Of a DNA stretch of 64,000 nt, positions 202 to 60,685 are shown piece by piece. Position numbers and translations under genes: made by a program. Every line of letters begins with the position of its first letter. Position 1 is the stretch's first letter. The notes beneath the pieces were generated by a model. It was not told where the DNA came from. It worked only from the letters and a program-made list of their open reading frames with translations, and ran no database searches. Source of the DNA: a virus (lineage: Duplodnaviria > Caudoviricetes); IMG/VR virus record IMGVR_UViG_3300033075_000927, positions 14,404-78,403 of that record; one strand, written 5' to 3'.

Positions 202-456
202 ATGCTTGGAGCCAATCTGGCGATTGTGGCCGCCACACTGTGGTATATTTTGGTAAGCGTTGACGGCAGGTTGCTAGCATGGCTAGCAACCTGCCTGCTC
301 CTGCCGCTGCTGTTTGCCGTAGGGTGCCTGCTCTTGTTCTCGGTTCCTGTGTGTTGGCTAGCTAGAATGCTGGCCAAAGCTAGCCAGGCTTCTGTGGAAG
401 GTGTCTACACCCTGTTTGACTGGTTCATGGACACTGAAGACCGCCTCTACAAATGA
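202..456 (+). CDS. small membrane protein
   Basis: RBS aaggagg; 2-3 hydrophobic segments; ATGA overlap with the helicase. Confidence 0.6.
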   Translation: MLGANLAIVAATLWYILVSVDGRLLAWLATCLLLPLLFAVGCLLLFSVPVCWLARMLAKASQASVEGVYTLFDWFMDTEDRLYK

Positions 457-1844: not shown

Positions 1845-1892
1845 CCATTTACAATCCGCCCGCCACCCCGGCGAGCCAACTCACTCAACCTC

Positions 1893-2417: not shown

Positions 2418-2427
2418 GGCTCTGCAC

Positions 2428-5346: not shown

Positions 5347-5353
5347 AGTCTGC

Positions 5354-5379
5354 TGTACCACCTAAAACGGTGGTACAAT
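5354..5379 (+). promoter_or_regulatory. extended -10 promoter (TGGTACAAT) overlapped by a 9-bp inverted repeat
   Basis: TGTACCACC-taaaac-GGTGGTACA; the same CGGTGGTACAAT occurs at 60091-60102. Confidence 0.5.
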
Positions 5380-5447
5380 ACCAAAACCCCGCAAGTGGTT
5401 ACTTGCTGACAAGTCGGAAAGAACGGCTAACACTGAAAGCTAAAATC

Positions 5448-6149
5448 ATGCTGAAACCCGCAAATACTGCTACCGCAAATACTGCTACCACATCCGCAAC
5501 TTTTGAAGACCAGGACGACGTTGCCGTTGCCGCACCTGCTGCCACCACAGCTGTCGCAGTGGCCAAGCCCCTGGCCCCCTCCGCTGCTGCTCAGTTCAGC
5601 TCGGCAACTGACGTGATCAGCTCGCTGAAGAACGCAATGCCTGTCACATTCGACATGTTGATTCCTCTGATCGCAACCAACGGCAACGTCTGCAAACGCT
5701 CTGACAAGAAGCCTGTCGGTGATCAAGTTACCTTTGAGCTGATGTCTTGGCAGGATAGCTACACCCTCACACCTGGGGATGATCGCGCTCCAAAAGACCT
5801 CATACGCTACAGCGATGACGGCGTTGTATGCAGCGACGGCACCTTGGTGTCAGATCACCTGGCCTACCTGCGCAGCCTCGGTTTCGCCAAGGCTGCGCTC
5901 AAGCAGCGTGCAGTGGTTGTTGGCTCCATCATCTCCTGCTCACGCACCTCGGAACTGGACGACGAACTGGTTCAATTTGACTTGTCCCCCCAGAGCCGAG
6001 CCTCATTCCTGAACTACGCCCTGGGCTGCGTCAACAAGATCCGTCTGGGCAAGTTGACCTCCGAGCAGGTGACCAAGATCAAGGCTACGGCTGAAGTGGT
6101 AAGCATGGGCGGTAACCCATTCACCAAACTCATGTTCAGCGCCGCCTAA
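5448..6149 (+). CDS. putative ssDNA-binding/recombination protein
   Basis: Start reassigned to ATG 5448; Ala/Thr-rich N-tail followed by a beta-rich domain; function inferred only from position in the replication module. Confidence 0.5.
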   Translation: MLKPANTATANTATTSATFEDQDDVAVAAPAATTAVAVAKPLAPSAAAQFSSATDVISSLKNAMPVTFDMLIPLIATNGNVCKRSDKKPVGDQVTFELMSWQDSYTLTPGDDRAPKDLIRYSDDGVVCSDGTLVSDHLAYLRSLGFAKAALKQRAVVVGSIISCSRTSELDDELVQFDLSPQSRASFLNYALGCVNKIRLGKLTSEQVTKIKATAEVVSMGGNPFTKLMFSAA

Positions 6150-6170
6150 CCTAGGCGCATGACGCAACCA

Positions 6171-6204
6171 AGCCCACAGCGCAGCAATGCCCTGTGGGCT
6201 TTTT
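6171..6204 (+). terminator. intrinsic terminator
   Basis: AGCCCACAG...CTGTGGGCT followed by TTTT. Confidence 0.75.
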
Positions 6205-6213
6205 AAGGTCTAT

Positions 6214-6849
6214 ATGTACACAATCCTGGACACTGAAACAGCGTCACTGCAATCTGGCGTAGTAGAGCTTGCTCTGCTCCACATCGACCACGAACTCAAC
6301 GTGCTCGGTGAATTCCACACCAAGGTCAATCCTGAGCGTCCCATTGAGCCCGGTGCATTCGCAGTACACGGCATCTCAGATGCAGACGTAGCAGATGCCC
6401 CTACGCTGGCCCAAATCGCTGAACTGGGGGCGGTGACTCACGCCATTGCCCACAACTTGCCATTCGACAGCCGCATGCTGAAGGGCCACCTAAATGCGGA
6501 AGCTGGCCTTTGCACCTTGGCGCTGTCGCGCCAGTACCTGAAAGGCACTGCCAACCACAAGCTGGAAAACCTGAAACGCGAACTTGGGCTGCCTGACCAG
6601 AAATCTCACAGCGCCCTGGGCGACGTGTACACGACCCTGGACTTGCTGCGGCACCTGCTGCCGCTAGCAGGTGTGCCCCTTGATACCCTGTTCAAGAGGG
6701 CGGCTCAGCCGAAGCTGATACATCGAATGACATTCGGCAAGCACAAGGGCTTGCTGATCTCGCAGGTTCCCGCAGATTACCGATCCTGGCTTCTGGGCCA
6801 AGAAAACCTCGACAAAGATCTAAGATACACATTGGAGAGATTGAAATGA
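6214..6849 (+). CDS. DnaQ-like 3'-5' exonuclease (ExoX-like, DUF3820-like C-terminus)
   Basis: ExoI LDTET, ExoII AHNLPFD, ExoIII HSALGD; C-terminal FGKHKG...VPADY..WLL. Confidence 0.9.
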   Translation: MYTILDTETASLQSGVVELALLHIDHELNVLGEFHTKVNPERPIEPGAFAVHGISDADVADAPTLAQIAELGAVTHAIAHNLPFDSRMLKGHLNAEAGLCTLALSRQYLKGTANHKLENLKRELGLPDQKSHSALGDVYTTLDLLRHLLPLAGVPLDTLFKRAAQPKLIHRMTFGKHKGLLISQVPADYRSWLLGQENLDKDLRYTLERLK

Positions 6850-7172
6850 GCAACTTCGTGCTAATCACGTTGAGCGATAGCGATTACGCCAGACCTCTAC
6901 GAGAGGCGGCGCAGTACATGGCTCGCATTCTTCCTAGTGCTAGGGTGAGTAAAGACTCTATCGTTGTCGCCACTATCTCACAGTACCTCAAACACAGGCT
7001 GGTAGACGAGCGATATATAGACGCCAGTTACGTGCCAAAGGACGTAGCTAAGTTGTCCCGGCATCTGCTGGATTGCGTTACAGTTACAGAGCACAAGGCT
7101 ATGACTTGGCTCACAAACCACGACGTACAGGTTGTAATTGACCTGCACACCAAACACGTTCACTACCAGTAA
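6846..7172 (+). CDS. hypothetical protein
   Basis: ATGA-coupled ORF, 108 aa. Confidence 0.65.
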   Translation: MSNFVLITLSDSDYARPLREAAQYMARILPSARVSKDSIVVATISQYLKHRLVDERYIDASYVPKDVAKLSRHLLDCVTVTEHKAMTWLTNHDVQVVIDLHTKHVHYQ

Positions 7173-7181
7173 GGAGCTGAA

Positions 7182-7616
7182 ATGAGCAACGTATTTGAAA
7201 CAATCAAAGACTTCAACAAGTTCTACGGGCTGCCCTGTCCTGACGTACCAACACTCAGCGCAGTGCGCGACCCTGATGGGCGCATTCACGGCTTCATCAA
7301 GACGGTGGAGAAGGAGCTGTCCGAGGGCTTCGACATTCTGGAAAAGTACGAGGCAGGCTGCTCAGCCCTTGAGATGCTGACTGATTTGGCCGACTGGTAC
7401 GGGGATTTGGTCGTGTATGCACTCAGCGAAGCTGCTAAGTGGGGTATCCCTAGCGAGAGGGTGCTTCAGGCTATCATGGAGTCCAACTTCAGCAAAAAGC
7501 AGGCTGACGGCTCCACACTGAAGGATACCAACGGCAAGGTAGTCAAGGGTCCGAACTTTCAGCCGCCAGAGCCTGCTATTTGCCGGGCAATTATTGATGC
7601 GGGGTACAAGCCATGA
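7182..7616 (+). CDS. MazG-like / PRA-PH-like NTP pyrophosphohydrolase
   Basis: EKELSE...LTDLADWYGDLVVY...MESNFSK...GKVVKGPNFQPP pattern. Confidence 0.85.
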   Translation: MSNVFETIKDFNKFYGLPCPDVPTLSAVRDPDGRIHGFIKTVEKELSEGFDILEKYEAGCSALEMLTDLADWYGDLVVYALSEAAKWGIPSERVLQAIMESNFSKKQADGSTLKDTNGKVVKGPNFQPPEPAICRAIIDAGYKP

Positions 7617-8323
7617 GCAGGCTTGATAGACCTACTAAGCCTGCCAAGGGTTCACCAATCTGCGACGTTGACGGCACGCCAAGGTCATACGGCCCTATCT
7701 CGTCGAGCGTCGTTGACCCCGACCTCGGAAAATGGTCTGAGTGGTTTTGCCTACCTGAAACAGGTGCCCTCTTCTGCACCGACATGTACGAAGTTGAAAT
7801 CTGCGGCAACGACCGCGTTCTGCGCCCACTGACCAAGGACGGTGGCTGGTGGAAGCCACACCCTGACGCAACTCTCTGGAGGTGCCGCTTCCGGTGGCCC
7901 CGTGTCAAAGCCCCTCCCGTCCCGCCAGAAGATCGCGGATGGTCGAATTGGTACAGAGTCGTGTCATCTGGCACGCAGTTCGACCTTGAAAAGTTTGAGG
8001 TGCAGTTCTGTGACCCGGCAGGCAACTTCCAGCCGACAGCCGAAACCTCTACCGCTTGGCGGTGCCGGCCTCGCTCCAACTATGCTGGCAAACCAGAATT
8101 CAAGACCAAGCAGCACGGCTCGGTGGCAGTGACCACCTCCAGCGGCCAGCAGTGGCAGAGGCTTGACACCTGCCCACGAGGCAGCAAGGTGCAGCTGATG
8201 TTCCGCTTCGGCTTGCCTCGCTACGAGGTCTACACAGGCCAGCCAGATGCACTGGCCTGGGCACCGATGCCCGACAGCCCGGAGTGGCTGAAAGACGAAT
8301 TGTCAAACCAGAACAGGAGCTGA
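7613..8323 (+). CDS. hypothetical Trp-rich protein with internal repeat and DUF551-like C-terminus
   Basis: Two GxWSxW...(Y/F)EV(E/Q)xC...WRCR units; C-terminal WQRLDTCP...AWAPMPDSP. Confidence 0.65.
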   Translation: MSRLDRPTKPAKGSPICDVDGTPRSYGPISSSVVDPDLGKWSEWFCLPETGALFCTDMYEVEICGNDRVLRPLTKDGGWWKPHPDATLWRCRFRWPRVKAPPVPPEDRGWSNWYRVVSSGTQFDLEKFEVQFCDPAGNFQPTAETSTAWRCRPRSNYAGKPEFKTKQHGSVAVTTSSGQQWQRLDTCPRGSKVQLMFRFGLPRYEVYTGQPDALAWAPMPDSPEWLKDELSNQNRS

Positions 8324-8325
8324 AG

Positions 8326-8703
8326 ATGCCAAGAAGTGATTCGCCCGTTCCACCCAGACCGGGCCGCCCAAAGCCTCCAAGGTATCCAGATGGTCAGAGG
8401 CTGCAGTCAGAAGGCAAAAAGTTTGACTCTGGCAAGCCTCGCTGGAGCTTGCTGCCTCGTGGCACGCTGCTCAAGGTCATCCAAGTGTTGGAGGCCGGGG
8501 CCGTCAAATACGACGTGGATAACTGGAAGAGCGTACCGGACGCTCGCACCAGGTACTACGACGCCATGAACCGTCACATCGAGGCTTGGTGGGGCGGCGA
8601 GAAGCAGGACCCTGAGACGGGCATCCACCACCTGGCGCACGCAACCTGCTGCGCTTTGTTTCTGATCTGGCTTGATGAGCCGGTTGACGGGCCTGCACAG
8701 TGA
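8326..8703 (+). CDS. dATP/dGTP diphosphohydrolase (DUF5664)
   Basis: GKKFDSGKPRWSLLP...GAVKYDVDNW...YYDAMNRH..AWWGGEKQDPETGIHHLAHA. Confidence 0.9.
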   Translation: MPRSDSPVPPRPGRPKPPRYPDGQRLQSEGKKFDSGKPRWSLLPRGTLLKVIQVLEAGAVKYDVDNWKSVPDARTRYYDAMNRHIEAWWGGEKQDPETGIHHLAHATCCALFLIWLDEPVDGPAQ

Positions 8704-8942
8704 CCCGCCGCCCTGTCTTCAGCCGGTCGGCTCTGCCGACCAGGCCTATGGGGCTGCGCGACATGCTGCTTTGGTGGCTGGTCGCTGAAAAGACGGGCAT
8801 CGGCTTGTGGCTCACGGCTGCAATCGGTGCTCTGATGTTTCTCAGGTTCGTTGGTGAACTGGCCTCACTAGGTCAAGAAGACCAATGCCTGACACTTGTA
8901 GCAAGGAGTAAAGATGAAGCCAATAGCCAGAATAGTAACTAG
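8700..8942 (+). CDS. small membrane protein
   Basis: GTGA overlap with the upstream gene; hydrophobic segment. Confidence 0.45.
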   Translation: MTRRPVFSRSALPTRPMGLRDMLLWWLVAEKTGIGLWLTAAIGALMFLRFVGELASLGQEDQCLTLVARSKDEANSQNSN

Positions 8943-9237
8943 GATGCAAGGGGCAGGTGACGGGCTTATGCTCGGCAGTACGTTTCCTGGTCAGGACTTC
9001 TTCAAACCGAACACCGTCTACGAAGTGGAGAGATTCTGCGGCGTAGTGACTATCCGAGAAGTCGGCAAGGCCTGCGGATTCGAGAAAGGTGACGACCCTG
9101 ACGACAGGCACAGCTTCCTGAAGAGGCTCTTCAACTGGGCCGAGGAGATACAGGTGCTGCTCGTTGCCCGTGGCTCGAAGTTGTTTATGACGCGGGAAGA
9201 ATTTGATAGAGTACATGAAACTGTGAGGTACGATTGA
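8914..9237 (+). CDS. hypothetical protein
   Basis: RBS aaggag; overlaps the polA start. Confidence 0.7.
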   Translation: MKPIARIVTRMQGAGDGLMLGSTFPGQDFFKPNTVYEVERFCGVVTIREVGKACGFEKGDDPDDRHSFLKRLFNWAEEIQVLLVARGSKLFMTREEFDRVHETVRYD

Positions 9238-12200
9238 TGAAAGTTCTAGTTGATGTAAGCAGTCTAATCAAGACCTGCCTGTACGCCGGAAAAGACCCAG
9301 AAGCGATTCTGGCGTCTGACGGCTCTCAAGTAAGCTCTGCGCGATGGGGTTACGACAACACGGTCAACTCCCTGGTGGCCACCTTGGACTACCTCAAATG
9401 TGTGCCATCCGACATCGTGTTTGCTGTGGAGGGGTTTCACAGCAAGTCCCGTCGCCAGCACATCGACAAGGGGTACAAGCAGGACGCGAAGCCGAAGGCT
9501 CCTGAGATGTTCGAGCAGTTCAATGAGGCCAAGGTCCTGGTGCTTGGGGCTTTCCGCAGGTTGGGCTCCATTCAGGTGACCCAGGACGGCGTGGAGGCTG
9601 ACGACATTATCGCCTGGTTCTGCACCCACACCAAAGAGGACACCGTCATCGTCTCGAATGACGGCGACCTGTGCCAGCTGCTGGGGCCCAATGCTCACGG
9701 CGCGAACATCGCCGTCTACCGGACGCACGGCGTGCAGCGCGAAAACCCTTACGGCGAGTTCTCGCCCAAGAACATCCTGGTCTACAAAGCCACGGTCGGG
9801 GATTCGTCCGACAAGATCAAGGGTGTGCCCGGCTTTGGCCCAGCCAAGTTCCAAGCCCTGCTGGAGCGCTTCGGTGACGACGGCCTGACTGAGCTGCGCC
9901 GCCTGGGCGACGAGGGCTCGCTGAGGGAGCTGTACGAGCAGGCCAGCACCGAGCCGCTGGTCCAACGCCTGGTGGACGGTGAGGAAAACTACCTGACCAG
10001 CTTCCGACTGGCCAAACTCTACCCGGAGTGGTGCAACACGCTGCACCAGCCGCTCGTGTGGACACCAGGCATGGTGGCGGGGTCTACTGAGGACCTGCGG
10101 CTGAAGAAGTGGGAATCCGCCCGCCGACTGGTCACAGCCGACAAGTGGGAGGCCTTCAAGCCTTGGGCTACTCGCAACATCGGTGGCTGGATGGCCCTGG
10201 ACATTGAAACCTCCACACCGGACGAGTCGGACGATTGGCTGGCCGCCCAAGATGACAGCAAGGGTGTGGACGTGATCGGCTCGAAGCTGTCTGGCATGTC
10301 GCTGACCTTCGGCCCCAACAAGCAGTACACCGTCTACATCCCGGTTGACCACGTTGACACAGACTGCGTGAAGTCGGAAGACCTGCGCGACTTCATCGCG
10401 TCGCTGCACGGCGTGACGAAGGTGATCCACAACACCCAGTTCGAGGGCACCGTCCTGTTCAACGAGTGGGGTGCCGAGTGGGCCGACAACGGGTTCCACG
10501 GCTACCTGCCCAATTGGCTGGACACCAAGTTCGAGGCCTCATATGTGGACGAGAACTTCTCACTGGGCCTGAAGAAACTGTCGAAGAGGTGGCTGGACTA
10601 CAACCAGGTGGACTACGACACGGTCACCACCCTCGAAGGTGAGCCAGGCTCTCTGAAGGGTGGGCGGCTGCTGGGCGAGTTCAAGAAGTGTGTCAAGGAG
10701 GCGGTGACGCGGGTGGCGACGCAGGAGGATGTGATCTGCGCCGACGAGTTTGGCCTCGACGAAGTACACCTTGGCGACACCATCGAAGTCAGCCCCGCCG
10801 AATTCGTGATGGTCGAACGCCGCCAGTACAAGATGCGCGAACTCAGCGCCCAGCACGTCTTCGACTACGCCTGCGACGACACGGTCACCACTGCAGCCCT
10901 GCACAATTTCTTCAAGCTGATCATGCAGCTTGAGGGAACTTGGCAGACCTATCTGGACGTGGAAATTTCCGCCTCCTACCTGCACACCCAGTCGTTTGTT
11001 CAAGGCGTTCCAATTGATTTGGCCAAGTTGCAAGAGTTGCGTGAGATTGACGACAAGACCTATGACGAGGCCTGGGCCAAGCTCTCCGCCTACCTGATGA
11101 CCAAGGGCTGGGATGGCTGCCTGCCGCCAGTCTACGACGGCGAGCCCACGCCGAAGCAGATCAAAGAGGCCTTCACCATCGTGACCGGCGAGGAGCTGGA
11201 GACGGCGGTACGCAAGCTCGACCGGCTGGCCGACGCCGTGGAAGCAGGCGGAAGCCTGGCGATGGCGGAGCTGATCCGCAACCGCGACTGGGAGTCGTTC
11301 AAGACCTTGGTGCTGCAGCACTTCGACGGCCAGCCGAAGTTCAATCCAGGCTCTCCGAAGCAGATGCAGCGCCTCTTCTACGAGGTCATGGGCCTGCCGG
11401 TGCGGGTGTTCAACGCCCCCACCGCCACCATGCGTGCTAAGGGCATCAAGCAGGGCACACCACAGACGAACGAGCTGGCCGTCAAGTATGCGATGCTTGA
11501 GGCTGGGCCGGAGGAAGCCGCTGCGCTGGAGGCAATCCGCCTGATGAAAATGGTGAGCACTAGGCGAGGCCTGTACTACGACACCTACCCGTACTTCGTA
11601 CACTGGAAGACTGGGCTGGTACACAGCTCACATAACCAATGTGCCACGAACACTAGACGAGCATCCTCCGCAAAGCCTAACGTACAGCAACTCGCTAAGC
11701 ACGAGAAGGTGAAAGGATTTGCGGCCAGGTTCCGCGAAGTAATCTCCCCGCACAAGAAGGGCGCTGTGGTGGTATCTATGGACTTCTCGTCCCAGGAGAT
11801 CCTGCTGCTGGCCGAATGGTCTCACGACCCTGTGCTGGAGCTTGCCTTCACTGGCGACCCACCGCTTGATATGCACAGCAAGACTGGGGTCGGTATCTGG
11901 AACCGCACCAATGAGCCGCTAACTTATGAGGAGTTTAAGACTATAGTTGATAACCAGTCGCACCCACTACACAAGAATATCAAGAAAGCGAGAGCTCTAG
12001 GTAAGACTGTGAACTTCGGAGCACTCTACCGTATGGCTGCTAAGAAGGCTGCCTCTGTGATGCTAGTTACTGAAGAAGAGGCGCAGGCGAGTTTGGACGC
12101 AAAAGCGGAGGCCTTCCCTGTGTCCGAGGCTTGGGCGCTGAGAGAGATGGAGATCGTCAAGGAGGCCGGGATCAGCAAGACCCTGCTCGGGGCGGTACGC

Positions 12201-12584
12201 CACCTCGGGCCAGCACTCCTGTCGGAAGACAAATACGAGGCTGTAAAGGCGGAGCGACAAACCTTGAGCTTCAGAATTCAGGGTTCTGCCGCTGAAATGA
12301 CCAAGCAGGCTGAGGGTGCCATGTGGGACATGGGTCTAGTTCAGAAGTATGATTGCAGAGTGTACTTTCCCGTGCATGATGAAGTGGTAGCTTCTGTTGT
12401 TGTTTCAGACTTAGAGCCGTTCCTACTAGATATGCACAAGGCGATGGTCAGGCCCTACGCTAACATGCGGTTGCCGATCCGGTCTTCTGTATCGTTCGGC
12501 CCGTCGTTTGGGGAGCAAATCGAAGTGGGCAACGTGGGCACACCAACCCTTGAGGAGATTCGCGCAGCCGTGGCGAAGTTGTGA
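9234..12584 (+). CDS. polA: family A DNA polymerase with fused 5'-3' exonuclease and 3'-5' exonuclease
   Basis: 5' nuclease motifs GVEADD, SNDGD, GDSSDKIKGVPGFG; exo LDIET, HNTQFE, YACDD; pol A DFSSQE, B KTVNFGALY, C VHDE. Confidence 0.95.
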   Translation: MMKVLVDVSSLIKTCLYAGKDPEAILASDGSQVSSARWGYDNTVNSLVATLDYLKCVPSDIVFAVEGFHSKSRRQHIDKGYKQDAKPKAPEMFEQFNEAKVLVLGAFRRLGSIQVTQDGVEADDIIAWFCTHTKEDTVIVSNDGDLCQLLGPNAHGANIAVYRTHGVQRENPYGEFSPKNILVYKATVGDSSDKIKGVPGFGPAKFQALLERFGDDGLTELRRLGDEGSLRELYEQASTEPLVQRLVDGEENYLTSFRLAKLYPEWCNTLHQPLVWTPGMVAGSTEDLRLKKWESARRLVTADKWEAFKPWATRNIGGWMALDIETSTPDESDDWLAAQDDSKGVDVIGSKLSGMSLTFGPNKQYTVYIPVDHVDTDCVKSEDLRDFIASLHGVTKVIHNTQFEGTVLFNEWGAEWADNGFHGYLPNWLDTKFEASYVDENFSLGLKKLSKRWLDYNQVDYDTVTTLEGEPGSLKGGRLLGEFKKCVKEAVTRVATQEDVICADEFGLDEVHLGDTIEVSPAEFVMVERRQYKMRELSAQHVFDYACDDTVTTAALHNFFKLIMQLEGTWQTYLDVEISASYLHTQSFVQGVPIDLAKLQELREIDDKTYDEAWAKLSAYLMTKGWDGCLPPVYDGEPTPKQIKEAFTIVTGEELETAVRKLDRLADAVEAGGSLAMAELIRNRDWESFKTLVLQHFDGQPKFNPGSPKQMQRLFYEVMGLPVRVFNAPTATMRAKGIKQGTPQTNELAVKYAMLEAGPEEAAALEAIRLMKMVSTRRGLYYDTYPYFVHWKTGLVHSSHNQCATNTRRASSAKPNVQQLAKHEKVKGFAARFREVISPHKKGAVVVSMDFSSQEILLLAEWSHDPVLELAFTGDPPLDMHSKTGVGIWNRTNEPLTYEEFKTIVDNQSHPLHKNIKKARALGKTVNFGALYRMAAKKAASVMLVTEEEAQASLDAKAEAFPVSEAWALREMEIVKEAGISKTLLGAVRHLGPALLSEDKYEAVKAERQTLSFRIQGSAAEMTKQAEGAMWDMGLVQKYDCRVYFPVHDEVVASVVVSDLEPFLLDMHKAMVRPYANMRLPIRSSVSFGPSFGEQIEVGNVGTPTLEEIRAAVAKL

Positions 12585-12701
12585 TAAGATGGCAGCTTGA
12601 ATCTTGAACTCAGGCTGCTGCAACAGTATTAGTTCAGGGTTTACTCCCTGCGGGTTCGATTGGAGGTGTTGCAGCACCGACTTTCGAGCCCGTTTTCTTT
12701 T
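12582..12701 (+). ncRNA. structured leader RNA element A (C4/CI-like) with promoter and terminator
   Basis: TGATAAGAT extended -10; hairpin loop CTGCAA; hairpin CAGGG/CCCTG; stem CGGGTTCGA/TCGAGCCCG holding loop TTGCAG; U-tract; RBS. Confidence 0.55.
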
Positions 12702-12711
12702 GGAGATCGAA

Positions 12712-13314
12712 ATGCCAGATACAGCTGACACAGACGGAGCTAAACCAAAAACTGCCGGTGAAGCTGACACCTCAGAAGCAGGCATGCAGGCGTACATGCT
12801 CAAGCACTTCTACTTTTGCGAGGCTATTAAGGGGCTTCGTGTCAAGGAGAAAAGGCACTTCAACGGCAAGGAGGTCGGAGAGCCAGCCGGAAGTCCTACA
12901 CACTACGGATACCGACAGATAAATGTGTTCGGTAGACCGCACCTAGAGCACAGACTTGTATGGCTGATGTGTAAAGGGCACATGCCAACCCTAGAGCTGG
13001 ATCACGCTGATCAGGATAAGTTGAATAACCACATCTCCAACCTTAGAGAAGTGACACGGTCACAGAATAGCCAGAACAAGGGTAAGCAGAGTAACAATAA
13101 ATCCGGCAGAGTAGGGGTTCACAGGTCCGTAGACAGGTGCGGTAACGCATCCTGGATAGCCCAGATATGGGTAGACAATAAATATCGGAGCAAGACTTTC
13201 AGCTGTAATAAGTATGGCGAGGACAGTGCCAGGGATCAGGCCCTCTCTTGGAGAAGCCTGGCAGAACTCAACTTACACACTCACAGACCGACACAACCCA
13301 CGGAGCAGATATGA
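12712..13314 (+). CDS. free-standing HNH endonuclease (HNH_3 plus AP2-like tail)
   Basis: HRLVW...LELDHADQDKLNNHISNLR; start at ATG 12712 after GGAG. Confidence 0.85.
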   Translation: MPDTADTDGAKPKTAGEADTSEAGMQAYMLKHFYFCEAIKGLRVKEKRHFNGKEVGEPAGSPTHYGYRQINVFGRPHLEHRLVWLMCKGHMPTLELDHADQDKLNNHISNLREVTRSQNSQNKGKQSNNKSGRVGVHRSVDRCGNASWIAQIWVDNKYRSKTFSCNKYGEDSARDQALSWRSLAELNLHTHRPTQPTEQI

Positions 13315-14216
13315 GCATCAAACCCCAGCTGGCAAGTAATTACGAAGAAGGTAACATCCAACTACCTACCTTCGCCCAGCCCAAGATCGACGGAGTGCGA
13401 GGCCTCAACCTAGACGGTAGGCTCGTCGGACGCAGCCTCAAGGCCTTTAAAAACAAGGCTCTGACGGCCAAGTTCAGCCAACCAAAGTACCAAGGTCTGG
13501 ACGGTGAGCTGGCCCTTGGTGATGAGACTTCAAGCTCTCTGTGCCGAGACACCACCTCCGCCGTCAACACGATCACAGGCCCCTCCGAAGGTGTCGTGTG
13601 GCACGTATTCGACCTTGTGACCGAGGAGACGATTAAGTTGCCGTACTACGAGCGGTACAAGCTTCTGTGTCAGCGAGTGGAAGAGCTGGACGAGAATTGC
13701 ATCAAGCTTGTGCCCTACTTCAGGCTCAATTCCTCATCTGAGGTCGAGGAATACGACGAGGAGAACTTGGCTGATGGCTACGAGGGCACGATCCTGCGCA
13801 ACCCTAACTCCCTGTACAAGGAAGGTCGGCCAGGCAAGAAAGAGCAACAGCTGATGCGAATTAAACGGTTCTCAGACTCTGAAGCCCTGGTGTTGGCAGT
13901 TGTCGAAGGTCGGACAAACCTGAACGAAGCTGTGGTCAACGAGATTGGCCGCTCAGAAAGAAGCTCTCACGCCGAGAACCAAGTTCCGAACGGCATGGTC
14001 GGATCGCTGACATGCAGAGACTTGGAGTCTGGCATGACGATCACAGTCTCCCCAGGGGAGATGGATCACATTGAACGCAAGTTCTACTTCGACAACCAGC
14101 AGGAAATTGTCGGCAAGACGATCACCTACAAGAGCTTCAAGAAGGGTGTGAAGACCTTGCCTCGGTTCCCGACATTCAAGAACATCCGCAGTGCGGAAGA
14201 TATGGAGCAGAAATGA
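13311..14216 (+). CDS. ATP-dependent DNA ligase
   Basis: Motif I PKIDGVR, GLDGEL, GYEGTILR, KRF.D.EA, C-terminal PRFP.F. Confidence 0.95.
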   Translation: MSIKPQLASNYEEGNIQLPTFAQPKIDGVRGLNLDGRLVGRSLKAFKNKALTAKFSQPKYQGLDGELALGDETSSSLCRDTTSAVNTITGPSEGVVWHVFDLVTEETIKLPYYERYKLLCQRVEELDENCIKLVPYFRLNSSSEVEEYDEENLADGYEGTILRNPNSLYKEGRPGKKEQQLMRIKRFSDSEALVLAVVEGRTNLNEAVVNEIGRSERSSHAENQVPNGMVGSLTCRDLESGMTITVSPGEMDHIERKFYFDNQQEIVGKTITYKSFKKGVKTLPRFPTFKNIRSAEDMEQK

Positions 14217-17368: not shown

Positions 17369-17571
17369 TAGCCTACTGCACCAACTGCCGGCACTACCAG
17401 CCTCCGGCAAAGTCACACGGGGCTGGCCAGTGTCTGGCAGTATCCTTGCCCGCCATCACCGCCAGGGCTCAGGCCTGCGGCACCTTCGGCCACCTGTTTG
17501 AGGCAGCTCCTTTGCACGCTGCGCACCCAAGGATGGTAAAAGGGCCAACAAAGAAGAGGAAATCACCGTGA
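17350..17571 (+). CDS. small Cys-rich protein
   Basis: CTNCRHY...C...C pattern. Confidence 0.6.
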   Translation: MAHSKVIAYCTNCRHYQPPAKSHGAGQCLAVSLPAITARAQACGTFGHLFEAAPLHAAHPRMVKGPTKKRKSP

Positions 17572-17696
17572 ACAGCGTATCGCCACACAGTTACTTCGCC
17601 TACCCGGAAGCCTTCGTACCTGGAGCTGCCATGCTCGTCAATGCAGCATTTGCCACTGTGGGCTGGGGCATCAGTGACCAGACGCTTGGCTTATGA
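17568..17696 (+). CDS. micro-ORF A1 (42 aa, MNSVSPHSYFAYPEAFV...ATVGWGIS)
   Basis: GTG start overlapping the upstream TGA, RBS aagagga; translated by hand; not in the ORF track. Confidence 0.55.
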   Translation: MNSVSPHSYFAYPEAFVPGAAMLVNAAFATVGWGISDQTLGL

Positions 17697-17836
17697 CACC
17701 GGCTACTGAGCCTGTTGAGCAGTGCAACTGCGCATCCTACTATCTGTCGTACCACCCAGACACGATTACGCTTGTGTTCAGAATCATCCGACCGGTTACC
17801 CGCATCAGACCCGCCAGAGAGCGACTACTACCATGA
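17693..17836 (+). CDS. micro-ORF A2 (47 aa, MTPATEP...FRIIRPVTRI)
   Basis: ATGA overlap at both ends; translated by hand. Confidence 0.55.
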   Translation: MTPATEPVEQCNCASYYLSYHPDTITLVFRIIRPVTRIRPARERLLP

Positions 17837-17967
17837 CACCTTCATTCGATACCTCCACACTTTACTGCCAAACAATAAAAACTACTGTGCATGGGTGGGT
17901 GTACGTTTCGCGTGAGTTCAGAGACGTAGGCCGTAACATCGTGCCGCTGATCGGACTTGTGCTGTGA
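17833..17967 (+). CDS. micro-ORF A3 (44 aa, MTPSFDT...)
   Basis: ATGA/GTGA overlaps; translated by hand. Confidence 0.55.
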   Translation: MTPSFDTSTLYCQTIKTTVHGWVYVSREFRDVGRNIVPLIGLVL

Positions 17968-18143
17968 CACCAGCCTACTCCGTAACTAGCCAGAGCTACA
18001 GCTCACACTACATACAGTATCCGCTAGATGGCTGCGACGCGCAGGCGCTGGTGTATGCAGGCATACGAGAAGTGTTCTTGAAATCACCATTAAGATGGAC
18101 TTTACTACAATGGCACCAGCCCACTTCAGCCTCGGCTGTTTAA
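17964..18143 (+). CDS. micro-ORF A4 (59 aa, MTPAYSV...)
   Basis: GTGA overlap; same TGACACC start as A2 and A3. Confidence 0.5.
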   Translation: MTPAYSVTSQSYSSHYIQYPLDGCDAQALVYAGIREVFLKSPLRWTLLQWHQPTSASAV

Positions 18144-53268: not shown

Positions 53269-54153
53269 TTACTTTGCCAGCAGTAACTGGTTCAGGTTCG
53301 CTGACCCGCTCCATGTTGCAGTCGTTTGGCCTGTTACGCGGTTCAACGACATGTTGATATGGTTTCTTGCGAAGGCTTTTGCGGCTGATACTGGGGCGCT
53401 GACCTCCGAAGTCAGGTGTGTAACAAACACCGGATTGGTCACCAGGGAATACGGCATGTATTTCATGCGCCAGTTCAGGGATACGGCTTCAAGTTCCTCT
53501 GGCGTAGGCTCTGGCAAGGGCTTCTTGCCTGCCTGCTTGCGGGCAGCTACAAGTTCTTTCAGGTAGCTCTGTGCAAGTTCTTCAACAGCTGCCCAGGATT
53601 GGTGCTGATCGTAGTCTGACACTTCGCCCAGCATTTCCAGCATGCCGATAAGGTCTGGTCTGCCGTACTTGCGCAAGAGTTGGACAGTGAGGCGTTTGAT
53701 TCCTTCAGGGCCGTGGCCTGCCTTGCAGGCGAGAATGTCCATGATGGCAATGTCTTGCTTCAACATGTTGAAGTTGACGCTATCAAGGGCTTTGTAGTTC
53801 TCGACAGCTCTTTCGGCTGCGCCCTCTATCAGGTCTTTGAGGACTTGCGGGGCGATGTATTGGCCATTGACCTGGGTCTCAAGCTCTTGCCAGCGGTCAA
53901 TGATCTTGGCACGCATCGTTACGCTGTAACCAGTGATCAGGATGTAGGTCTCTCGCTTGGGCAGAGTGAAGAACTCATACTCGTTCCCTCTCTCCGTTTT
54001 GTACGCTCCTGAAAAGTCAGGAGCGTGGAGTTCGAGATCAGACATCATCTGCCGAATGTCGGCCATGACGTTATCGTGGCGCTTGCCGGTCAGCTCAGCG
54101 ATTTCGCGACTGGTCATGGTGAGGGTTTCGGGAATCATGGAAAGTTCGGACAT
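53269..54153 (-). CDS. rha: Rha-family phage regulatory protein
   Basis: MTSREIAELTGKRHDNVMADIR...Y..ERGNEY..F.LPKRET.ILITGYS..MRAKIIDRWQELE. Confidence 0.9.
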   Translation of the reverse strand: MSELSMIPETLTMTSREIAELTGKRHDNVMADIRQMMSDLELHAPDFSGAYKTERGNEYEFFTLPKRETYILITGYSVTMRAKIIDRWQELETQVNGQYIAPQVLKDLIEGAAERAVENYKALDSVNFNMLKQDIAIMDILACKAGHGPEGIKRLTVQLLRKYGRPDLIGMLEMLGEVSDYDQHQSWAAVEELAQSYLKELVAARKQAGKKPLPEPTPEELEAVSLNWRMKYMPYSLVTNPVFVTHLTSEVSAPVSAAKAFARNHINMSLNRVTGQTTATWSGSANLNQLLLAK

Positions 54154-54165
54154 TTTGCTCTTTCT

Positions 54166-54300
54166 AAAGGCAAAAGACCTCACCTGCGTCCTCACCACTT
54201 TCGTGGAGTTGGCAGAACGGTCGCAACAACCGCCAGGACGCATGTGAGGTCTCTGTTGCGTGGATTTGCTCCCTGCCAAGGGAGTGCGTGGATTATACCA
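54166..54300 (-). ncRNA. structured leader RNA element C (C4/c4-a1b1-like) upstream of rha
   Basis: TGGTATAAT promoter; nested stems AGACCTCAC/GTGAGGTCT and TGCGTCCT/AGGACGCA; cross-complementary CGCAACA/TGTTGCG and TTGGCAG/CTGCCAA; U-tract. Confidence 0.65.
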
Positions 54301-54306
54301 GAAAGC

Positions 54307-54334
54307 GAGCTCGGCTGAAAAGTCAGCCGAGCTC
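54307..54334. promoter_or_regulatory. operator-like palindrome over the rha -35 region
   Basis: GAGCTCGGCTGA-aaag-TCAGCCGAGCTC; core CTGAAAAGTCAG also at 54009-54020 inside rha. Confidence 0.6.
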
Positions 54335-54412
54335 CTGTAGGGGGGTGGTGTCGAGATATTCCGCCAATGGCGGAATATCAAACCCTCACTCGCCTGAAAA
54401 CTCAGGCCAGCA

Positions 54413-54438
54413 GGGTGTCCCCAAATTTGGGGACACCC
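54413..54438. repeat. perfect 26-bp palindrome
   Basis: GGGTGTCCCCAAATTTGGGGACACCC. Confidence 0.9.
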
Positions 54439-54513
54439 ACCCAAAACCCCAGACTTGATAGCACACAAGCGTTATCAAGCGTGCGGTTTTGCACGACTTT
54501 ATGGAGAACCCAA

Positions 54514-55689: not shown

Positions 55690-56400
55690 CATGTAACTCA
55701 AGTTACCAAGTGCGCAAACGCCGGATTCTCCAAACCCCGCAAGCTCCGCAAGCCCCCTTTTCGATAGCAAAAGTTGCAGAAAACCTGTAATTTTTGTACC
55801 GACGGGTCGAAATGCGCGTAACTTTGTTACCAAATCGGTAACTTTCGCGCTTCAAGCCCCGTTTTGCGGGTTTTGCGGGGTTTCAAGAGTTATTTGCAGA
55901 CTTGAGTCGGGCTCAAGCGGGTTGCAAGCCTTTAGCAGCTCTTTGCAAGCCCTACACAGCCTTGCAAGCCTTTCTTACCTAATTCGCAGGCACCTCAAGC
56001 TTTGCTAGGCGCTTAAAAAATTTTTTACCGCCTAGTAGCAAAAATTATCCAAATTTAGCTAAAAATTTTGGAAATTTTTAGAGAAAAATACTAATTTACG
56101 ACTACTAAAACATGTATTTATATTTATATTTATATTATATATTTATATTTTTTTATTGTATTTTATTGTATTGCTTGTATTTTTACCCAGTTAATTCCTA
56201 TAACTGAAGTAGTCCGACTTTATGGGGAAAAAACGTTTTTTAAAAAATAAAAAAACGAAAAACATTTTTTCTGGCAAACGTGCCCCCCTTTTTGCTCCTG
56301 AACGAACAGGGTAAAAATACATGCAATACAACAAAATACTGTATTTTTTTGTGCAAAAGTACCAAAATACAAAATACACAAAATACTTTTTCAAGCTTTA
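55690..56400. other. putative replication origin (iteron-like repeats plus AT-rich tract with inverted arms)
   Basis: TTGCAAGCC x3 (55922, 55943, 55962); CCGCAA/TTGCGG pairs; very AT-rich 56020-56400; 23-bp IR 56166-56188/56309-56331. Confidence 0.55.
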
Positions 56401-56738: not shown

Positions 56739-57770
56739 ATGACCTCCCCAAACTTCACCTTGATCAGAGACCTCTCCCGCCAAGAGGCCAAAGACCTTGG
56801 GCAGCAGCAGCTCTCCGGTACAGGCCGGGTCGTAGAGTTACGCTGCGACCTGACCGGCACGGTACTCTACCGCCCAGCCGTAGCCTGGCGGGCCGGGCAA
56901 GTAGGGCACCGGGCTTGCTGCGGCATCGTCGAACGCAAACCCGAACCCACCCCCAGGCCCCAGAAAACCTTGGAGGCTGCCCTCTACGGCATAAAAAACG
57001 GCTTCACAACCCGCCTCAGAGCCCAGCCGGACACCTTGGCAGGCCTCTGGAGACGGGCAGCCCCCGCCTCAGACTTGGATGGTGTGAGGCTTGACATCCT
57101 CCTGCCCGACTCAAGCCAGCTGGAGACCTTCAACCTTGACAAAGAGCAGGTCGCCCTGCTCAACTGGTGGTTCGCCCTTGAGGCCAACCCAACTATCTGG
57201 GTGCAACCCCCGAAGCTGACCCAGACCTACCATCAGGCCCCCCCCCCGGAGACCTCAACCCACCCCCGACTCCCGGTTCAGTACATGACCGGAGGCTTTG
57301 GGTACAGAAAAACGCATGTGGACATCGCCACCGACCCACCAACCCACCTCAGCCAGGACCTGGTGGCCTGGCTGCTCCTGCGGCTGCATGAGCACTCCTA
57401 CGCCATGCAGGAGGCCGTACCAGCTCCGGCAGACTTGATGGACGACGACCTTACCCCAGAGCAGCTGGCCACTCACGCCATCCGCTTCCTGGACTGGCCC
57501 GCCCCTGTCAACCCGAACCCATCCAGATTCAAGTACCGCAGACCTGACAGGCAGGACGCTGAGATCCACACGACAGCAACAACCGGCGAGCCGTCGATCA
57601 TCAGCACAGACCTGGACGGCACCATGCTGTGCTTGCGCCGCCCTCGCCCCGTAGAGCCCCTCCCGAAGGGCCGCTACGGCCCACCCAAGACTTGGGACCT
57701 CAACGACCTTGAAGATGTCGAGGTAGCCATACCCGAGCACTGGCAAGCCCTGCCACTTTGGAGGACATAA
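56739..57770 (+). CDS. hypothetical protein (343 aa, Pro-rich)
   Basis: Long ORF directly downstream of the putative origin. Confidence 0.75.
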   Translation: MTSPNFTLIRDLSRQEAKDLGQQQLSGTGRVVELRCDLTGTVLYRPAVAWRAGQVGHRACCGIVERKPEPTPRPQKTLEAALYGIKNGFTTRLRAQPDTLAGLWRRAAPASDLDGVRLDILLPDSSQLETFNLDKEQVALLNWWFALEANPTIWVQPPKLTQTYHQAPPPETSTHPRLPVQYMTGGFGYRKTHVDIATDPPTHLSQDLVAWLLLRLHEHSYAMQEAVPAPADLMDDDLTPEQLATHAIRFLDWPAPVNPNPSRFKYRRPDRQDAEIHTTATTGEPSIISTDLDGTMLCLRRPRPVEPLPKGRYGPPKTWDLNDLEDVEVAIPEHWQALPLWRT

Positions 57771-57773
57771 CCT

Positions 57774-58097
57774 ATGTTGCGGATTCAAGTGAGGTTCCCT
57801 GACGAGAACCCTGACACCCCACCCACCTTCCCCCAAACCCCGAAAGGGCTGATCGAGCTTGCGAAGGCCTTGCCAGCAGTCCGGGCCCAGGCCAAGGCAA
57901 AGAGCATAGAATCAGAGGTGTGGGTGGAGACATCTACGGGCAGACGAATCCCGCAGGAAGACCTTGACTACGTGTTGCACGTAGAACATCAAGAACGCTC
58001 CACCCAGCGCCTACGACGACCAGATCAGCGAAGGGTGCAGCGAGGCCAAGGCCCCCTGAAACGGGCTGCTGAAGTTCTGAAGGGGCTTGAGGTATGA
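57774..58097 (+). CDS. hypothetical protein
   Basis: RBS ggagga. Confidence 0.7.
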   Translation: MLRIQVRFPDENPDTPPTFPQTPKGLIELAKALPAVRAQAKAKSIESEVWVETSTGRRIPQEDLDYVLHVEHQERSTQRLRRPDQRRVQRGQGPLKRAAEVLKGLEV

Positions 58098-58237
58098 CTC
58101 CAGTGTCTATCCTCAGCCGTGGGCCTGAGCTGTTCGTGTATACGTCCAAGAGCTCAGAGGCCTTGCTCGTGTCATACACGATACTCTGGCCAGTTACTTT
58201 CGTCGTAGATCGGATGCAGTATGACGGAAACGCCTGA
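58094..58237 (+). CDS. micro-ORF B1 (47 aa, MTPVSILSRGPELFV...YTILWPVT)
   Basis: ATGA overlap; translated by hand. Confidence 0.65.
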   Translation: MTPVSILSRGPELFVYTSKSSEALLVSYTILWPVTFVVDRMQYDGNA

Positions 58238-58355
58238 GTTCTCAGAATGTCCTGAGCTGTTCATCAGGGAAGATTGCAACAGCCTAACCGCATCGGAAGT
58301 AGCCAACGAACTGATGTGGCCGCTGTCGTGGCTTGTGGATCAGATGCGACCATGA
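58221..58355 (+). CDS. micro-ORF B2 (44 aa, MTETPEFSECPELFI...ANELMWPLS)
   Basis: Shares CCTGAGCTGTTC with B1; ends in an ATGA overlap. Confidence 0.65.
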   Translation: MTETPEFSECPELFIREDCNSLTASEVANELMWPLSWLVDQMRP

Positions 58356-58516
58356 CCCACTTCTACCTACCTTCGCCGGACTACCTGTTCCGTGGCCGTT
58401 ATAGGTATAGGTATAGCTCTGCCTACACTGACGTGGACTGGAACGTCAAGTGGCCGATAACAAAGCTAGTCATCAACATGGAGCACCCAGCATGGTGGAA
58501 CCGCCCCTCAACTTGA
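58352..58516 (+). CDS. micro-ORF B3 (54 aa, MTHFYLPSPDYLFRG...NVKWPIT)
   Basis: ATGA overlap; C-terminal part of track ORF 58274..58516. Confidence 0.65.
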   Translation: MTHFYLPSPDYLFRGRYRYRYSSAYTDVDWNVKWPITKLVINMEHPAWWNRPST

Positions 58517-58622
58517 GTGCCCTGAATACTTCATTCGCGGTCAGGTTGGCTACGTGTATTCGGTGGTCGCAAATGCGATCCTGTGGCCGCTGTCCGAGCT
58601 TACAGCAAAGGTAAAGGAATGA
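58492..58622 (+). pseudogene. micro-ORF B4, apparently frameshifted (…LECPEYFIRG...ANAILWPLS)
   Basis: The homologous frame has no ATG; ATG 58492 (RBS ggag) is one frame off across a GCCCC run. Confidence 0.5.
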
Positions 58623-58744
58623 CCGAGGTAAAGTTGCTATTCGATGCTGACAGCCTCGTGAGGCCTTGGGTTCGACGCGTAGTAGATGTAGCCATCAGCT
58701 TAATGTGGCAGATACCCTACGCAGAAGGCGACCACCTGATATGA
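58619..58744 (+). CDS. micro-ORF B5 (41 aa, MTEVKLL...DVAISLMWQIP)
   Basis: RBS aagga; ATGA overlaps. Confidence 0.65.
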   Translation: MTEVKLLFDADSLVRPWVRRVVDVAISLMWQIPYAEGDHLI

Positions 58745-58899
58745 CACCTTGCAGAATACCCACCTTCTACTGCCCAGACGGCAGTAGAGACTTAGTAAAT
58801 TGGGTCAGGTTGGCACTACCAGAGAACGGCGTGCCGTCCTTGGTAGCTATTAACGTCGTGTGGGGCATCCCAAGGCCCACAGTGGAGTGTGAAATATGA
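58741..58899 (+). CDS. micro-ORF B6 (52 aa, MTPCRIP...LVAINVVWGIP)
   Basis: ATGACACC start; ATGA overlaps. Confidence 0.65.
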   Translation: MTPCRIPTFYCPDGSRDLVNWVRLALPENGVPSLVAINVVWGIPRPTVECEI

Positions 58900-59219
58900 A
58901 CCAAACACCAGAAGAACTTTATCGCAACCTGAGATCACTACCCACACAGCACCCCAACGAGCACCTTGTAGCAGCGCTATCTGATGCGCTTGCAATGGTC
59001 GATGCTCAGGAACAGGAAATCGAAGACCTTGAAAAGAAGGTTTTAGAACTTGAAAACGCAGACCTAGACGAGCTGAAAGCGGAGGTAGCTGAACTTACTC
59101 AGCGCCTAAACGCACAAAACAGGGCTTTCAGGGAGCTTTACAATGCCGTACCAGAGGCCAAAACGGTTGCAGCACGTAAGGCGCTGCAAGCGAAACATAT
59201 GAAAGATCTAAGCATATGA
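58896..59219 (+). CDS. coiled-coil hypothetical protein
   Basis: RBS ggag; heptad-rich. Confidence 0.7.
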   Translation: MNQTPEELYRNLRSLPTQHPNEHLVAALSDALAMVDAQEQEIEDLEKKVLELENADLDELKAEVAELTQRLNAQNRAFRELYNAVPEAKTVAARKALQAKHMKDLSI

Positions 59220-59419
59220 TCTACATCCAAAGAAAGTCGTCCACCCTTGAGACGGTGGACGAATTCGAGACACGCAAGGAAGCCCTTGCAGGGCCTGGAG
59301 CATCAAATGAACTGCACGATCTGCGGCAAATCAATCAAACTTGTACCATCGGCGGAAGAGCGGGCCAAGAAAGACCTTACAGGAAAGACAGCTGCGGATT
59401 ACCGCTCGTTGTTTACTGA
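59216..59419 (+). pseudogene. probable truncated small phage protein (MIYIQRK...ETVDEFETRKEA)
   Basis: Plausible N-terminus, then runs out of frame over the next gene. Confidence 0.35.
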
Positions 59420-59546
59420 GCACAGCGACTGCACTCTGCGCAAAAGGGCGGAAGACACGAGCAAACTCGTGTCAGAGCGTAAGGCAGCAACAAAGTATAT
59501 CAACCCACATAATGTGTGGGCCTTAAACAACTTCATAGGAGCCTAA
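59307..59546 (+). CDS. small Zn-finger-like protein
   Basis: MNCTICGK...HSDC; RBS ggag. Confidence 0.65.
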   Translation: MNCTICGKSIKLVPSAEERAKKDLTGKTAADYRSLFTEHSDCTLRKRAEDTSKLVSERKAATKYINPHNVWALNNFIGA

Positions 59547-59548
59547 TC

Positions 59549-60082
59549 ATGGGACGCAGCGTATCCACCCCACCAAACACTACTCTCGTCGAGTACCTAC
59601 ACCTGACCCAGGAACGCTACTGGTGCCCTGAGTGCGGCGAGACATTCGATGACCCGGCCAGAGTCGAGCAGGCCTGTGGCCACATTCATTCAGTCTGCCC
59701 TCACTGCGGCAGCATGGACTTCATCGAACAGGATTCCCAACTCCTGTACGATGACTTCAACGAAGACCTGAAGACCTTGCTGGTAGAGGCCTTCCCTAGT
59801 CTCACTTCTGATGAGAAGTGGCTCGGCAGAGAAGACAAGGCCCTGCTTTCCAACAGCTACGCCTACTTTGGCTGGTCGGAATATTGCGGCTTGGTCGCCG
59901 TCTGGGTGGCGGAGAAGGAGAAGGACTACAGAGCATCATCCGCCTGGGAAGCGATGCGAGACCGCTGGATCGCCTCCATCGAGAAGAGGTTCGCCAAGAC
60001 GGTTGCCAAGGCCTGGGGCACGCCCTTGACCAAAGTGGGCCAATTCAGCAACGGAGAAGTCGTGTTTCAGAAGAAATCTTAG
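59549..60082 (+). CDS. hypothetical protein with zinc ribbon
   Basis: MGRSVS...CPECG...CPHCG...WLGRED...SEYCGL; RBS aggag. Confidence 0.75.
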   Translation: MGRSVSTPPNTTLVEYLHLTQERYWCPECGETFDDPARVEQACGHIHSVCPHCGSMDFIEQDSQLLYDDFNEDLKTLLVEAFPSLTSDEKWLGREDKALLSNSYAYFGWSEYCGLVAVWVAEKEKDYRASSAWEAMRDRWIASIEKRFAKTVAKAWGTPLTKVGQFSNGEVVFQKKS

Positions 60083-60090
60083 GTCGTTTT

Positions 60091-60139
60091 CGGTGGTACA
60101 ATGCAAAAACCTCGACAGGTTCCAGCCTGTCGAGGTTTT
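60091..60139 (+). promoter_or_regulatory. HNH promoter TGGTACAAT plus 14-bp inverted repeat
   Basis: AAAACCTCGACAGG-ttccag-CCTGTCGAGGTTTT; the RBS is further enclosed in a CTGAAA/TTTCAG hairpin. Confidence 0.6.
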
Positions 60140-60169
60140 CTAAACCCACTGAAAATAGGAGTTTCAGAG

Positions 60170-60685
60170 ATGTCTGAACATAGTATAGCACACCCAGAAC
60201 TCACTGCAGAGAAGTTGAGAGAGCTTCTTCATTACGACCAAGTTTCTGGGATTTTCACATGGAAAGTGCGCACGTCTAGGAGTGTCAAAGTCGGCAACCT
60301 AGCCGGTAGCGTGGATGGAGACGGCTACCTGCGAGTCATGGCACTTAGCCGAAGATACCAAGCCCACCGCCTCGCATGGCTCTATATGTACGGAGTTTGG
60401 CCTGAAGGCCAAATAGATCACATTAACAGAATAAGAACTGATAACCGAATCGCTAATTTGAGAGAAGTAACTAACAAGCAGAACCACCAAAACAGGAGTA
60501 AGCCGAGCAACAACACATCAGGACACTCAGGCGAGAGCTGGTACAAGCGTGACTCCAAGTGGGTAGCCAAGATTACGCATAACTACAAACACACCCACCT
60601 CGGCTACTTCGAGAACCTAGAAGAAGCAATCGCAGCCCGCAAAGCCGCCGAGAAACTTTACTGGGCAGACACCTACACCACCTAA
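60170..60685 (+). CDS. free-standing HNH-AP2 endonuclease
   Basis: LTAEKLRELLHYD..SGIFTW; AHRLAWLYMYG.WP...IDHINRIRTDNRIANLR; HLGYF..LEEAIAARK. Confidence 0.92.
   Translation: MSEHSIAHPELTAEKLRELLHYDQVSGIFTWKVRTSRSVKVGNLAGSVDGDGYLRVMALSRRYQAHRLAWLYMYGVWPEGQIDHINRIRTDNRIANLREVTNKQNHQNRSKPSNNTSGHSGESWYKRDSKWVAKITHNYKHTHLGYFENLEEAIAARKAAEKLYWADTYTT

Follow-up and report, generated by a model that had tools for sequence, protein, structure and literature searches.

Evidence for six predicted coupled micro-genes, one of them broken, in a rightward operon of an uncultured 78 kb phage

When six very short open reading frames follow one another without a gap between two conserved phage genes, are they genes at all, do they share an ancestor, and what might their products do? 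The question is raised by a locus in the genome of an uncultured 78 kb phage, represented by an IMG/VR virus record of 78,403 bp that is rated complete. The DNA analysed here, called the window, is the stretch of 64,000 nucleotides formed by bases 14404-78403 of that record. An earlier note on this DNA had described six coupled micro-ORFs tiling 58094-58899, and these frames (B1 to B6, together array B) were found at the positions it gave.

No close cultured relative of the phage was found, and the array region has no match in the named phage collection; the identity of the terminase to those of cultured Vibrio phages is only 26%. GTDB genomes were searched for a relative of the terminase as a clue to the host, and none was found. 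The tRNA search detected none in the window, and no Rfam family reached its gathering score there. The cyanobacterial sRNA PsrR1 is matched below threshold in Rfam at 60105-60184 on the minus strand (25.8 bits against a gathering score of 42, E 0.095), overlapping the start of the HNH endonuclease gene; this is probably a chance match, unusable as a host clue. Two related fragments are classed as proviruses in IMG/VR, and the phage may therefore be temperate.

The structural genes occupy the minus strand up to ~50 kb of the window. The array lies beyond them in a rightward operon, in which a gene for a protein of 343 residues is followed by p107, array B, a gene for a coiled-coil-like protein of 107 residues, zinc-ribbon proteins and an HNH endonuclease (Table 1). 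The operon is preceded by an AT-rich stretch (55900-56400) that may represent a cluster of early promoters or an origin of replication; at the equivalent position, relatives of the phage have ~1 kb without called genes. The protein encoded by the first gene of the operon has no match in Pfam or PHROG, and Pfam matches of the coiled-coil-like protein are weak and of the coiled-coil type only. Both genes that flank the array are constant in position, with p107 to its left in 13 of 14 loci and the coiled-coil gene to its right in all loci that reach that far. In two relatives a gene of the P22 NinX family is located ~4 kb downstream of the array (L025:6619-7020, L029:6677-7087), with a MoxR-type AAA gene beyond it. 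Taken as a whole, the rightward region is nin-like, made up of small accessory genes.

Table 1. Features of array B and its surroundings, with selection estimates (omega) where available. Positions are those of the window.
Feature	Positions	Strand	Omega (p)	Basis or remark
399-aa Rha-type regulator	53269-54468	-		Phage_pRha domain (E 2.6e-17); divergent to rightward operon
Three tandem TTGCAAGCC-type iterons	55922-55979			just upstream of AT-rich control region
AT-rich control region	56000-56400			upstream of operon; GC 21-30% vs ~57% for genome
Promoter-like, sigma-70-like site	56095-56124	+		promoter scan
40-nt inverted repeat	56158-56197 / 56300-56339			repeat search
Conserved 343-aa gene	56739-57770	+	0.14 (7e-17 or below)	first of operon; omega from 6 relatives
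p107, conserved 107-aa gene	57774-58097	+	0.25 (7e-17 or below)	left anchor of array
B1, 47 aa	58094-58237	+	0.43 (1e-4)	PE[LY]F...WP mini-protein family; 44 aa in most relatives
B2, 44 aa	58221-58355	+	0.50 (1e-3)	PE[LY]F...WP family
B3, 54 aa	58352-58516	+	0.56 (0.02)	PE[LY]F...WP family
B4, broken here	58492-58622	+	0.40 (0.002), intact orthologues	ATG 58492 in frame 1, body 58509-58622 in frame 0; alignment with 7 relatives
B5, 41 aa	58619-58744	+	0.53 (0.007)	second family, with B6; 47 aa in relatives (18-nt in-frame difference)
B6, 52 aa	58741-58899	+	0.62 (0.04)	second family, with B5
Conserved 107-aa coiled-coil-like gene	58896-59219	+	0.18 (7e-17 or below)	right anchor of array
Gene matching only phrog_8738 (unknown function)	59247-59546			PHROG search
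Zinc-ribbon-like gene	59516-60082	+		Pfam scan
HNH endonuclease gene	60101-60685	+		database match
Omega of B1 to B6 is for the proposed frames.

Within the array there is no intergenic DNA, and neighbouring units overlap by 4-17 nt. An ATGA overlap of stop and start occurs at the B2/B3, B4/B5 and B5/B6 junctions, and likewise where p107 meets B1 and where B6 meets the coiled-coil gene; B1 and B2 overlap by 17 nt. The units begin with M-T because the conserved junction is ATGAC, in which the stop TGA is followed by C. Recognizable Shine-Dalgarno motifs are found at only about half of the starts, and a scan of 58094-58899 detected neither a promoter-like site nor a terminator-like site on the plus strand.

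Junctions of this type are common in the genome. When a coupled junction is defined as an ATGA or GTGA start that overlaps the stop of the upstream ORF, the plus strand of the whole genome has 108 of them between ORFs of at least 30 codons, compared with ~34 in shuffled sequence. Some 47 of these are in the first 14 kb of the genome (G000 250-14200, before the window) and are mostly ATGACACC, which encodes M-T-P. The coupled micro-ORFs outside array B have 37-60 codons, and some are also present at 17568-18143 of the window. These other arrays have no sequence relation to array B, and an HMM search for further copies of its family elsewhere in the genome retrieved none. The relative G001 (80 kb, rated complete, terminase 57% identical) has no excess of coupled junctions.

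Evidence that the units are protein-coding genes comes from their relatives. In 13 related metagenome contigs the same units are present between p107 and the coiled-coil gene with ORF boundaries and frames kept, at 79-91% nucleotide identity to the window across the array region. A profile of B1-B4 retrieved 13 proteins of 43-48 residues that had been called by other pipelines in unrelated assemblies, with orthologues of B1 independently called as proteins in three cases (P0003, P0011 and P0012), and the profile of the B5/B6 family matched 35 protein clusters elsewhere. An HMM search over 1.84 billion representatives found only proteins of 32-47 residues from the same clade, together with P0014 (2683 residues) and P0019 (304 residues), which were considered as fused homologues and rejected as tandem-repeat artefacts. 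The array is thus not the remains of a decayed larger gene as far as this collection goes, since it holds no longer homologue, and the suggestion of the earlier note that these are real micro-genes, located in an early operon and belonging to an unnamed family, is upheld by orthologues called elsewhere and by frame-specific selection.

Selection was estimated as omega, from the minimum numbers of synonymous and non-synonymous changes counted per codon column, and pairwise Nei-Gojobori estimates agree with the values in Table 1. In the other two frames of the same alignments omega is 0.74-1.4, without significance. Where intact units differ by insertions or deletions, the frame is kept (6 nt in B3, 18 nt in B5). 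These patterns indicate that B1 to B6 are protein-coding genes under moderate purifying selection, relaxed in comparison with their neighbours, with B6 differing only marginally from neutral. No positive selection was found in any unit by codon-column omega. Pairwise dS of B2, B3 and B6 is 0.15-0.31, compared with 0.43-0.67 in the neighbouring genes, which suggests that recent recombination or added nucleotide-level constraint may contribute to their conservation. In the centre of B2, ~70 nt (58260-58330) are almost identical in seven relatives, third codon positions included.

The short motifs on which the earlier note based its proposal of paralogy are all present in the translations. The C-terminal motifs follow the pattern x-V-x-x-x-hydrophobic-W-[PQG]-x-[STP], the upstream motifs are GPELFV, CPELFI, SPDYLF and CPEYFI, and CCTGAGCTGTTC is common to B1 and B2. 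Pairs of units were compared by Smith-Waterman alignment against 500 shuffles, giving z values of 10.5 for B1-B2, 6.8 for B1-B3, 5.4 for B1-B4, 14.7 for B2-B4, 9.0 for B3-B4 and only 2.3 for B2-B3. The B5-B6 pair reached 4.3, and pairs across the two groups gave at most 2.5. Similarity is therefore above the shuffled control for five of the six pairs within B1-B4 (z 5.4-14.7) and for B5-B6, so that B1-B4 are clear paralogues and B5-B6 a second pair; homology of all six, as originally proposed, was not established. Comparison of the profile of B1-B4 and their orthologues with that of B5-B6 by hhalign gave P 6e-4 over 15 columns with a probability of 28%, and the columns that link the two are those of the C-terminal V-A-x-x-hydrophobic-W motif. 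Neither B5 nor B6 was retrieved by the HMM of B1-B4 (E 6.4 in one search, nothing in another), and the link between the groups is best described as suggestive and weak.

Paralogues are 24-43% identical and orthologues mostly 60-100% identical, which places the duplications before the divergence of all 13 relatives. This age, along with purifying omega values of 0.40-0.62, does not agree with the description of the array as amplified and rapidly diversifying. Copy number does differ among relatives when they are compared, as considered below.

The reading frame of B4 is damaged in this genome. A frameshift at its C-run had been suspected, and it is real in this sequence, which has one base fewer than all seven relatives that cover the B3/B4 junction: they read GCATGACGGAACCG[T/C][C/T]CCC where the window has GCATGGTGGAACCG-CCCC. 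The missing base adjoins a C-run (58504-58507), and ATGGT has replaced ATGAC at the junction. In the relatives, the stop of B3 and the start of B4 share ATGA; the TGA at the position of 58493-58495 reads TGG here, so that B3 is 7 residues longer than its orthologues of 45-47 residues. The second residue of B4 is altered by the same junction change, and the body has no start codon in its own frame, the nearest ATG (58492) being in frame 1. The body is otherwise intact and 97% identical to the intact orthologue of L024, one of four loci with a complete B4 of 43 residues (the others are L025, L027 and L028). A stretch of 12 nt holds three differences, which resembles true decay more than an error in a homopolymer, and B4 appears to be inactivated in this genome. 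A programmed frameshift that would rescue it was considered and rejected: 58501-58509 contains no canonical slippery heptamer, and a +1 slip meets a stop.

Comparison of 14 loci shows that array content between p107 and the coiled-coil gene ranges from 3 to at least 8 units. At one end, L028 has all of B1-B6 intact, L024 has B3-B6 intact, and L027 has B1-B6 followed by a further unit, X1, and the start of another, X2. The unrelated micro-genes X1 and X2 also follow B6 in L017, and both are absent from the genome studied here. In the B2 orthologue of L028 (L028:2265-2408), a 9-nt in-frame duplication repeats M-W-P-L, another small in-frame change tolerated in a conserved helix. Other loci carry deletions. 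In L022, a 21-nt in-frame deletion in B4 has removed the W-P motif. L017, L018, L020 and L021 have in common a 151-nt deletion (58554 to 58705 of the window), through which the first part of B4 runs out of frame into the end of B5 and only a remnant of 26 codons is left; it was considered as a sign of B4-B5 homology, for which it is uninformative, its endpoints not being at equivalent positions. L025 has a deletion across the B5/B6 junction.

Two loci have permuted orders. L026 has only three units, in the order frameshifted B6-like, B2-like and B3-like, and each of its two novel joints falls within ~10 nt of a start or stop shared by neighbours. The order in L029 is B1, a divergent B3 (B3'), B6, X1, an X2 that is broken, another B3 and Y, a new unit. 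In the first unit of L029, B1 sequence extends as far as the shared GATCGGATGC and is followed by the B2/B3 junction; this crossover between B1 and B2 indicates that recombination between conserved paralogue ends has removed one unit. In the alignments, units are lost through recombination between paralogue ends, microhomology deletion and frameshifts, and in some cases a whole ORF is duplicated or changes its place. With 3 to at least 8 of them in related phages, the units are individually dispensable.

The proteins of the B1-B4 family have an invariant proline at position 11, within P-E-[LY]-F, and a nearly invariant tryptophan at position 33 that is usually followed by proline; their tail is a hydrophobic L-V-D-x-M. 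Variation is concentrated in the N-terminal 9 residues and in residues 16-30, and is greatest in B1. An AlphaFold model of B2, made with 27 sequences, places a helix at 11-18 against a long helix at 22-42 (pLDDT 67, pTM 0.35), so B2 may be a helical hairpin, at modest confidence. The model of B6 (pLDDT 46) is not confident and is too poor for fold comparison. Net charge ranges from about -7 in the strongly acidic B2 to +3 in B3. No transmembrane segment was detected in any unit, the maximum 17-residue Kyte-Doolittle means being 0.08-1.64.

Searches for described relatives of these proteins returned little. In Pfam-A the best matches of the units had E values of 0.019-0.21, all below gathering scores, and in PHROG the sole match was phrog_28085 for B3 (E 0.015). 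Sequence searches of the PDB and Foldseek searches against it found nothing; the best score in the ESM Atlas, 0.82, is uninformative; and the array region has no match in Rfam. Relatives in IMG/VR were sought through the flanking genes, with none found, and through the terminase, which identified phages (including G001) that share core genes and have no detectable B unit. An exact-pattern scan of IMG/VR and JGI metagenome contigs for the conserved start of B3 also gave nothing. On this evidence the mini-protein family appears to be confined to this phage clade.

On balance, we consider it slightly more probable than not that array B consists of coupled early micro-genes whose products are small proteins binding host or phage factors stoichiometrically. 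The array itself is a translationally coupled block for proteins of ~41-54 residues in the first rightward operon, which is proposed to start at the AT-rich control region with its promoter-like site. B1-B4 are old paralogues of one clade-restricted mini-protein family and B5-B6 a second pair. Ribosomes may be passed from unit to unit at the ATGA(C) overlaps by termination-reinitiation, and partial redundancy may allow the loss of single units to be tolerated. The products may be early accessory proteins with a role in host takeover, counter-defence or exclusion. This functional half is the weak part of the explanation, and is drawn by analogy with characterized small early phage proteins (review PMC11323111).

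The same arrangement can be read in other ways. The units could be ORFs that relay ribosomes by termination-reinitiation from p107 to the conserved genes downstream, with peptides of little or no function. Such a purpose would fit the ATGA-type or short overlap at every junction, the recognizable Shine-Dalgarno motifs at only about half of the starts, the retention of coupling whatever the number of units, and the relaxed selection on the peptides. It is unlikely, since purifying selection is frame-specific on all six units and paralogues have kept the core residues of PE[LY]F and WP since an old duplication; furthermore, 6-8 units would be needless for a relay, as L026 manages with three. The paralogous helical hairpins might instead be co-translated in fixed ratios and packed as a bundle, forming a hetero-oligomeric assembly. 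Stoichiometry is commonly set by translational coupling, the model of B2 is a hairpin, and B2 and B3 are present together at all loci spanning their positions apart from L029, which is without B2. The number of units, 3 to at least 8, and the absence or breakage of B1, B2, B4 and B5, each in some relatives, speak against a fixed assembly and make it quite unlikely.

Two further readings are very improbable. That the frames are not genes, and are instead ORFs that arose by chance, pieces of a larger gene in decay or some non-coding element, might be supposed from their very short lengths, the lack of a database family and the broken B4. This is already largely refuted by the boundaries and frames kept in 13 relatives at 79-91% nucleotide identity, by omega values below 1 only in the proposed frames, and by the failure to find a longer homologue in the 1.84 billion representatives or a match in Rfam. 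The size range would also suit small membrane, lysis-type or secreted signalling peptides, whether holin-like or arbitrium-like, and B1 has a moderately hydrophobic stretch, at the top of the Kyte-Doolittle range given above (1.64). Against this, there is neither a clear transmembrane segment nor an N-terminal signal-like hydrophobic region, the stretch of B1 contains an Asp in orthologues, B3 is hydrophilic, B2 is highly acidic, and the array is in an early operon rather than a lysis cassette.

Gene arrays with some of these properties have been described in other phages. In the hyperplastic regions of T4-type phages, cassettes of small ORFan genes are shuffled (Arbiol et al. 2010, PMC2839356; Comeau et al. 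2014, PMC4122927). As in those regions, the small variable genes of array B are located between conserved genes, and whole units are inserted, deleted or replaced among relatives. Shuffling in T4-type phages is by intergenic promoter-plus-stem-loop motifs (PeSLs), which give each cassette its own promoter (PMC2839356, PMC4122927), whereas array B has neither PeSLs nor intergenic DNA and its units are joined by ATGA overlaps. Its events are recombination between paralogue ends and at start/stop junctions, and its units are smaller and partly paralogous. Array B thus resembles the T4-type hyperplastic pattern without belonging to it, because the PeSL motifs that define the class are absent.

Families of small genes have also been predicted in phage genomes (Fremin et al. 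2022, PMC9254267), and, as summarized in a review (PMC11323111), these include proteins of fewer than 100 residues from uncultured phages, mostly without known function and often unannotated, as are those of array B; in that summary the work is a catalogue, rather than an account of one defined family. Small early proteins that act in host takeover or counter-defence have been characterized, such as Gp2 and Gp5.7 of T7 (bioRxiv 10.1101/262279), the host-takeover module of SPO1 (bioRxiv 10.1101/569657) and the products of anti-CRISPR operons (PMC3993853). Array B is like these in its short proteins, its early operon, its small genes in a row and the individual dispensability of its units, and differs in showing no similarity to them in sequence or fold in searches of Pfam, PHROG and the PDB. 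A Pfam search for an Aca-type HTH regulator found no HTH family in the two downstream genes that it covered, 58896-59219 and 59516-60082. The family is undescribed, in that it has no Pfam, PHROG or PDB match; loci of this kind, in which early orphan genes of small size form variable arrays, are already familiar from phages.

By itself, array B leaves knowledge of phage early regions unchanged. A more specific, and unlikely, proposal is that the PE[LY]F...WP hairpin serves as a minimal binder scaffold, and that a panel of copies with diversified surfaces is reassorted against variable host defence sensors by recombination at ATGAC junctions and paralogue ends. If true, and taken with the ~50 further ATGACACC-coupled micro-ORFs, this would amount to a dedicated cassette-shuffling system for micro-proteins. 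Whatever its function, the array is a clean, well-controlled case of real genes of fewer than 55 residues that ordinary annotation misses or mis-starts, and its 13 natural variants allow the loss, fusion and reordering of units to be traced base by base. A family of 44-residue proteins is small enough for chemical synthesis, and so offers a convenient entry to the function of phage micro-proteins.
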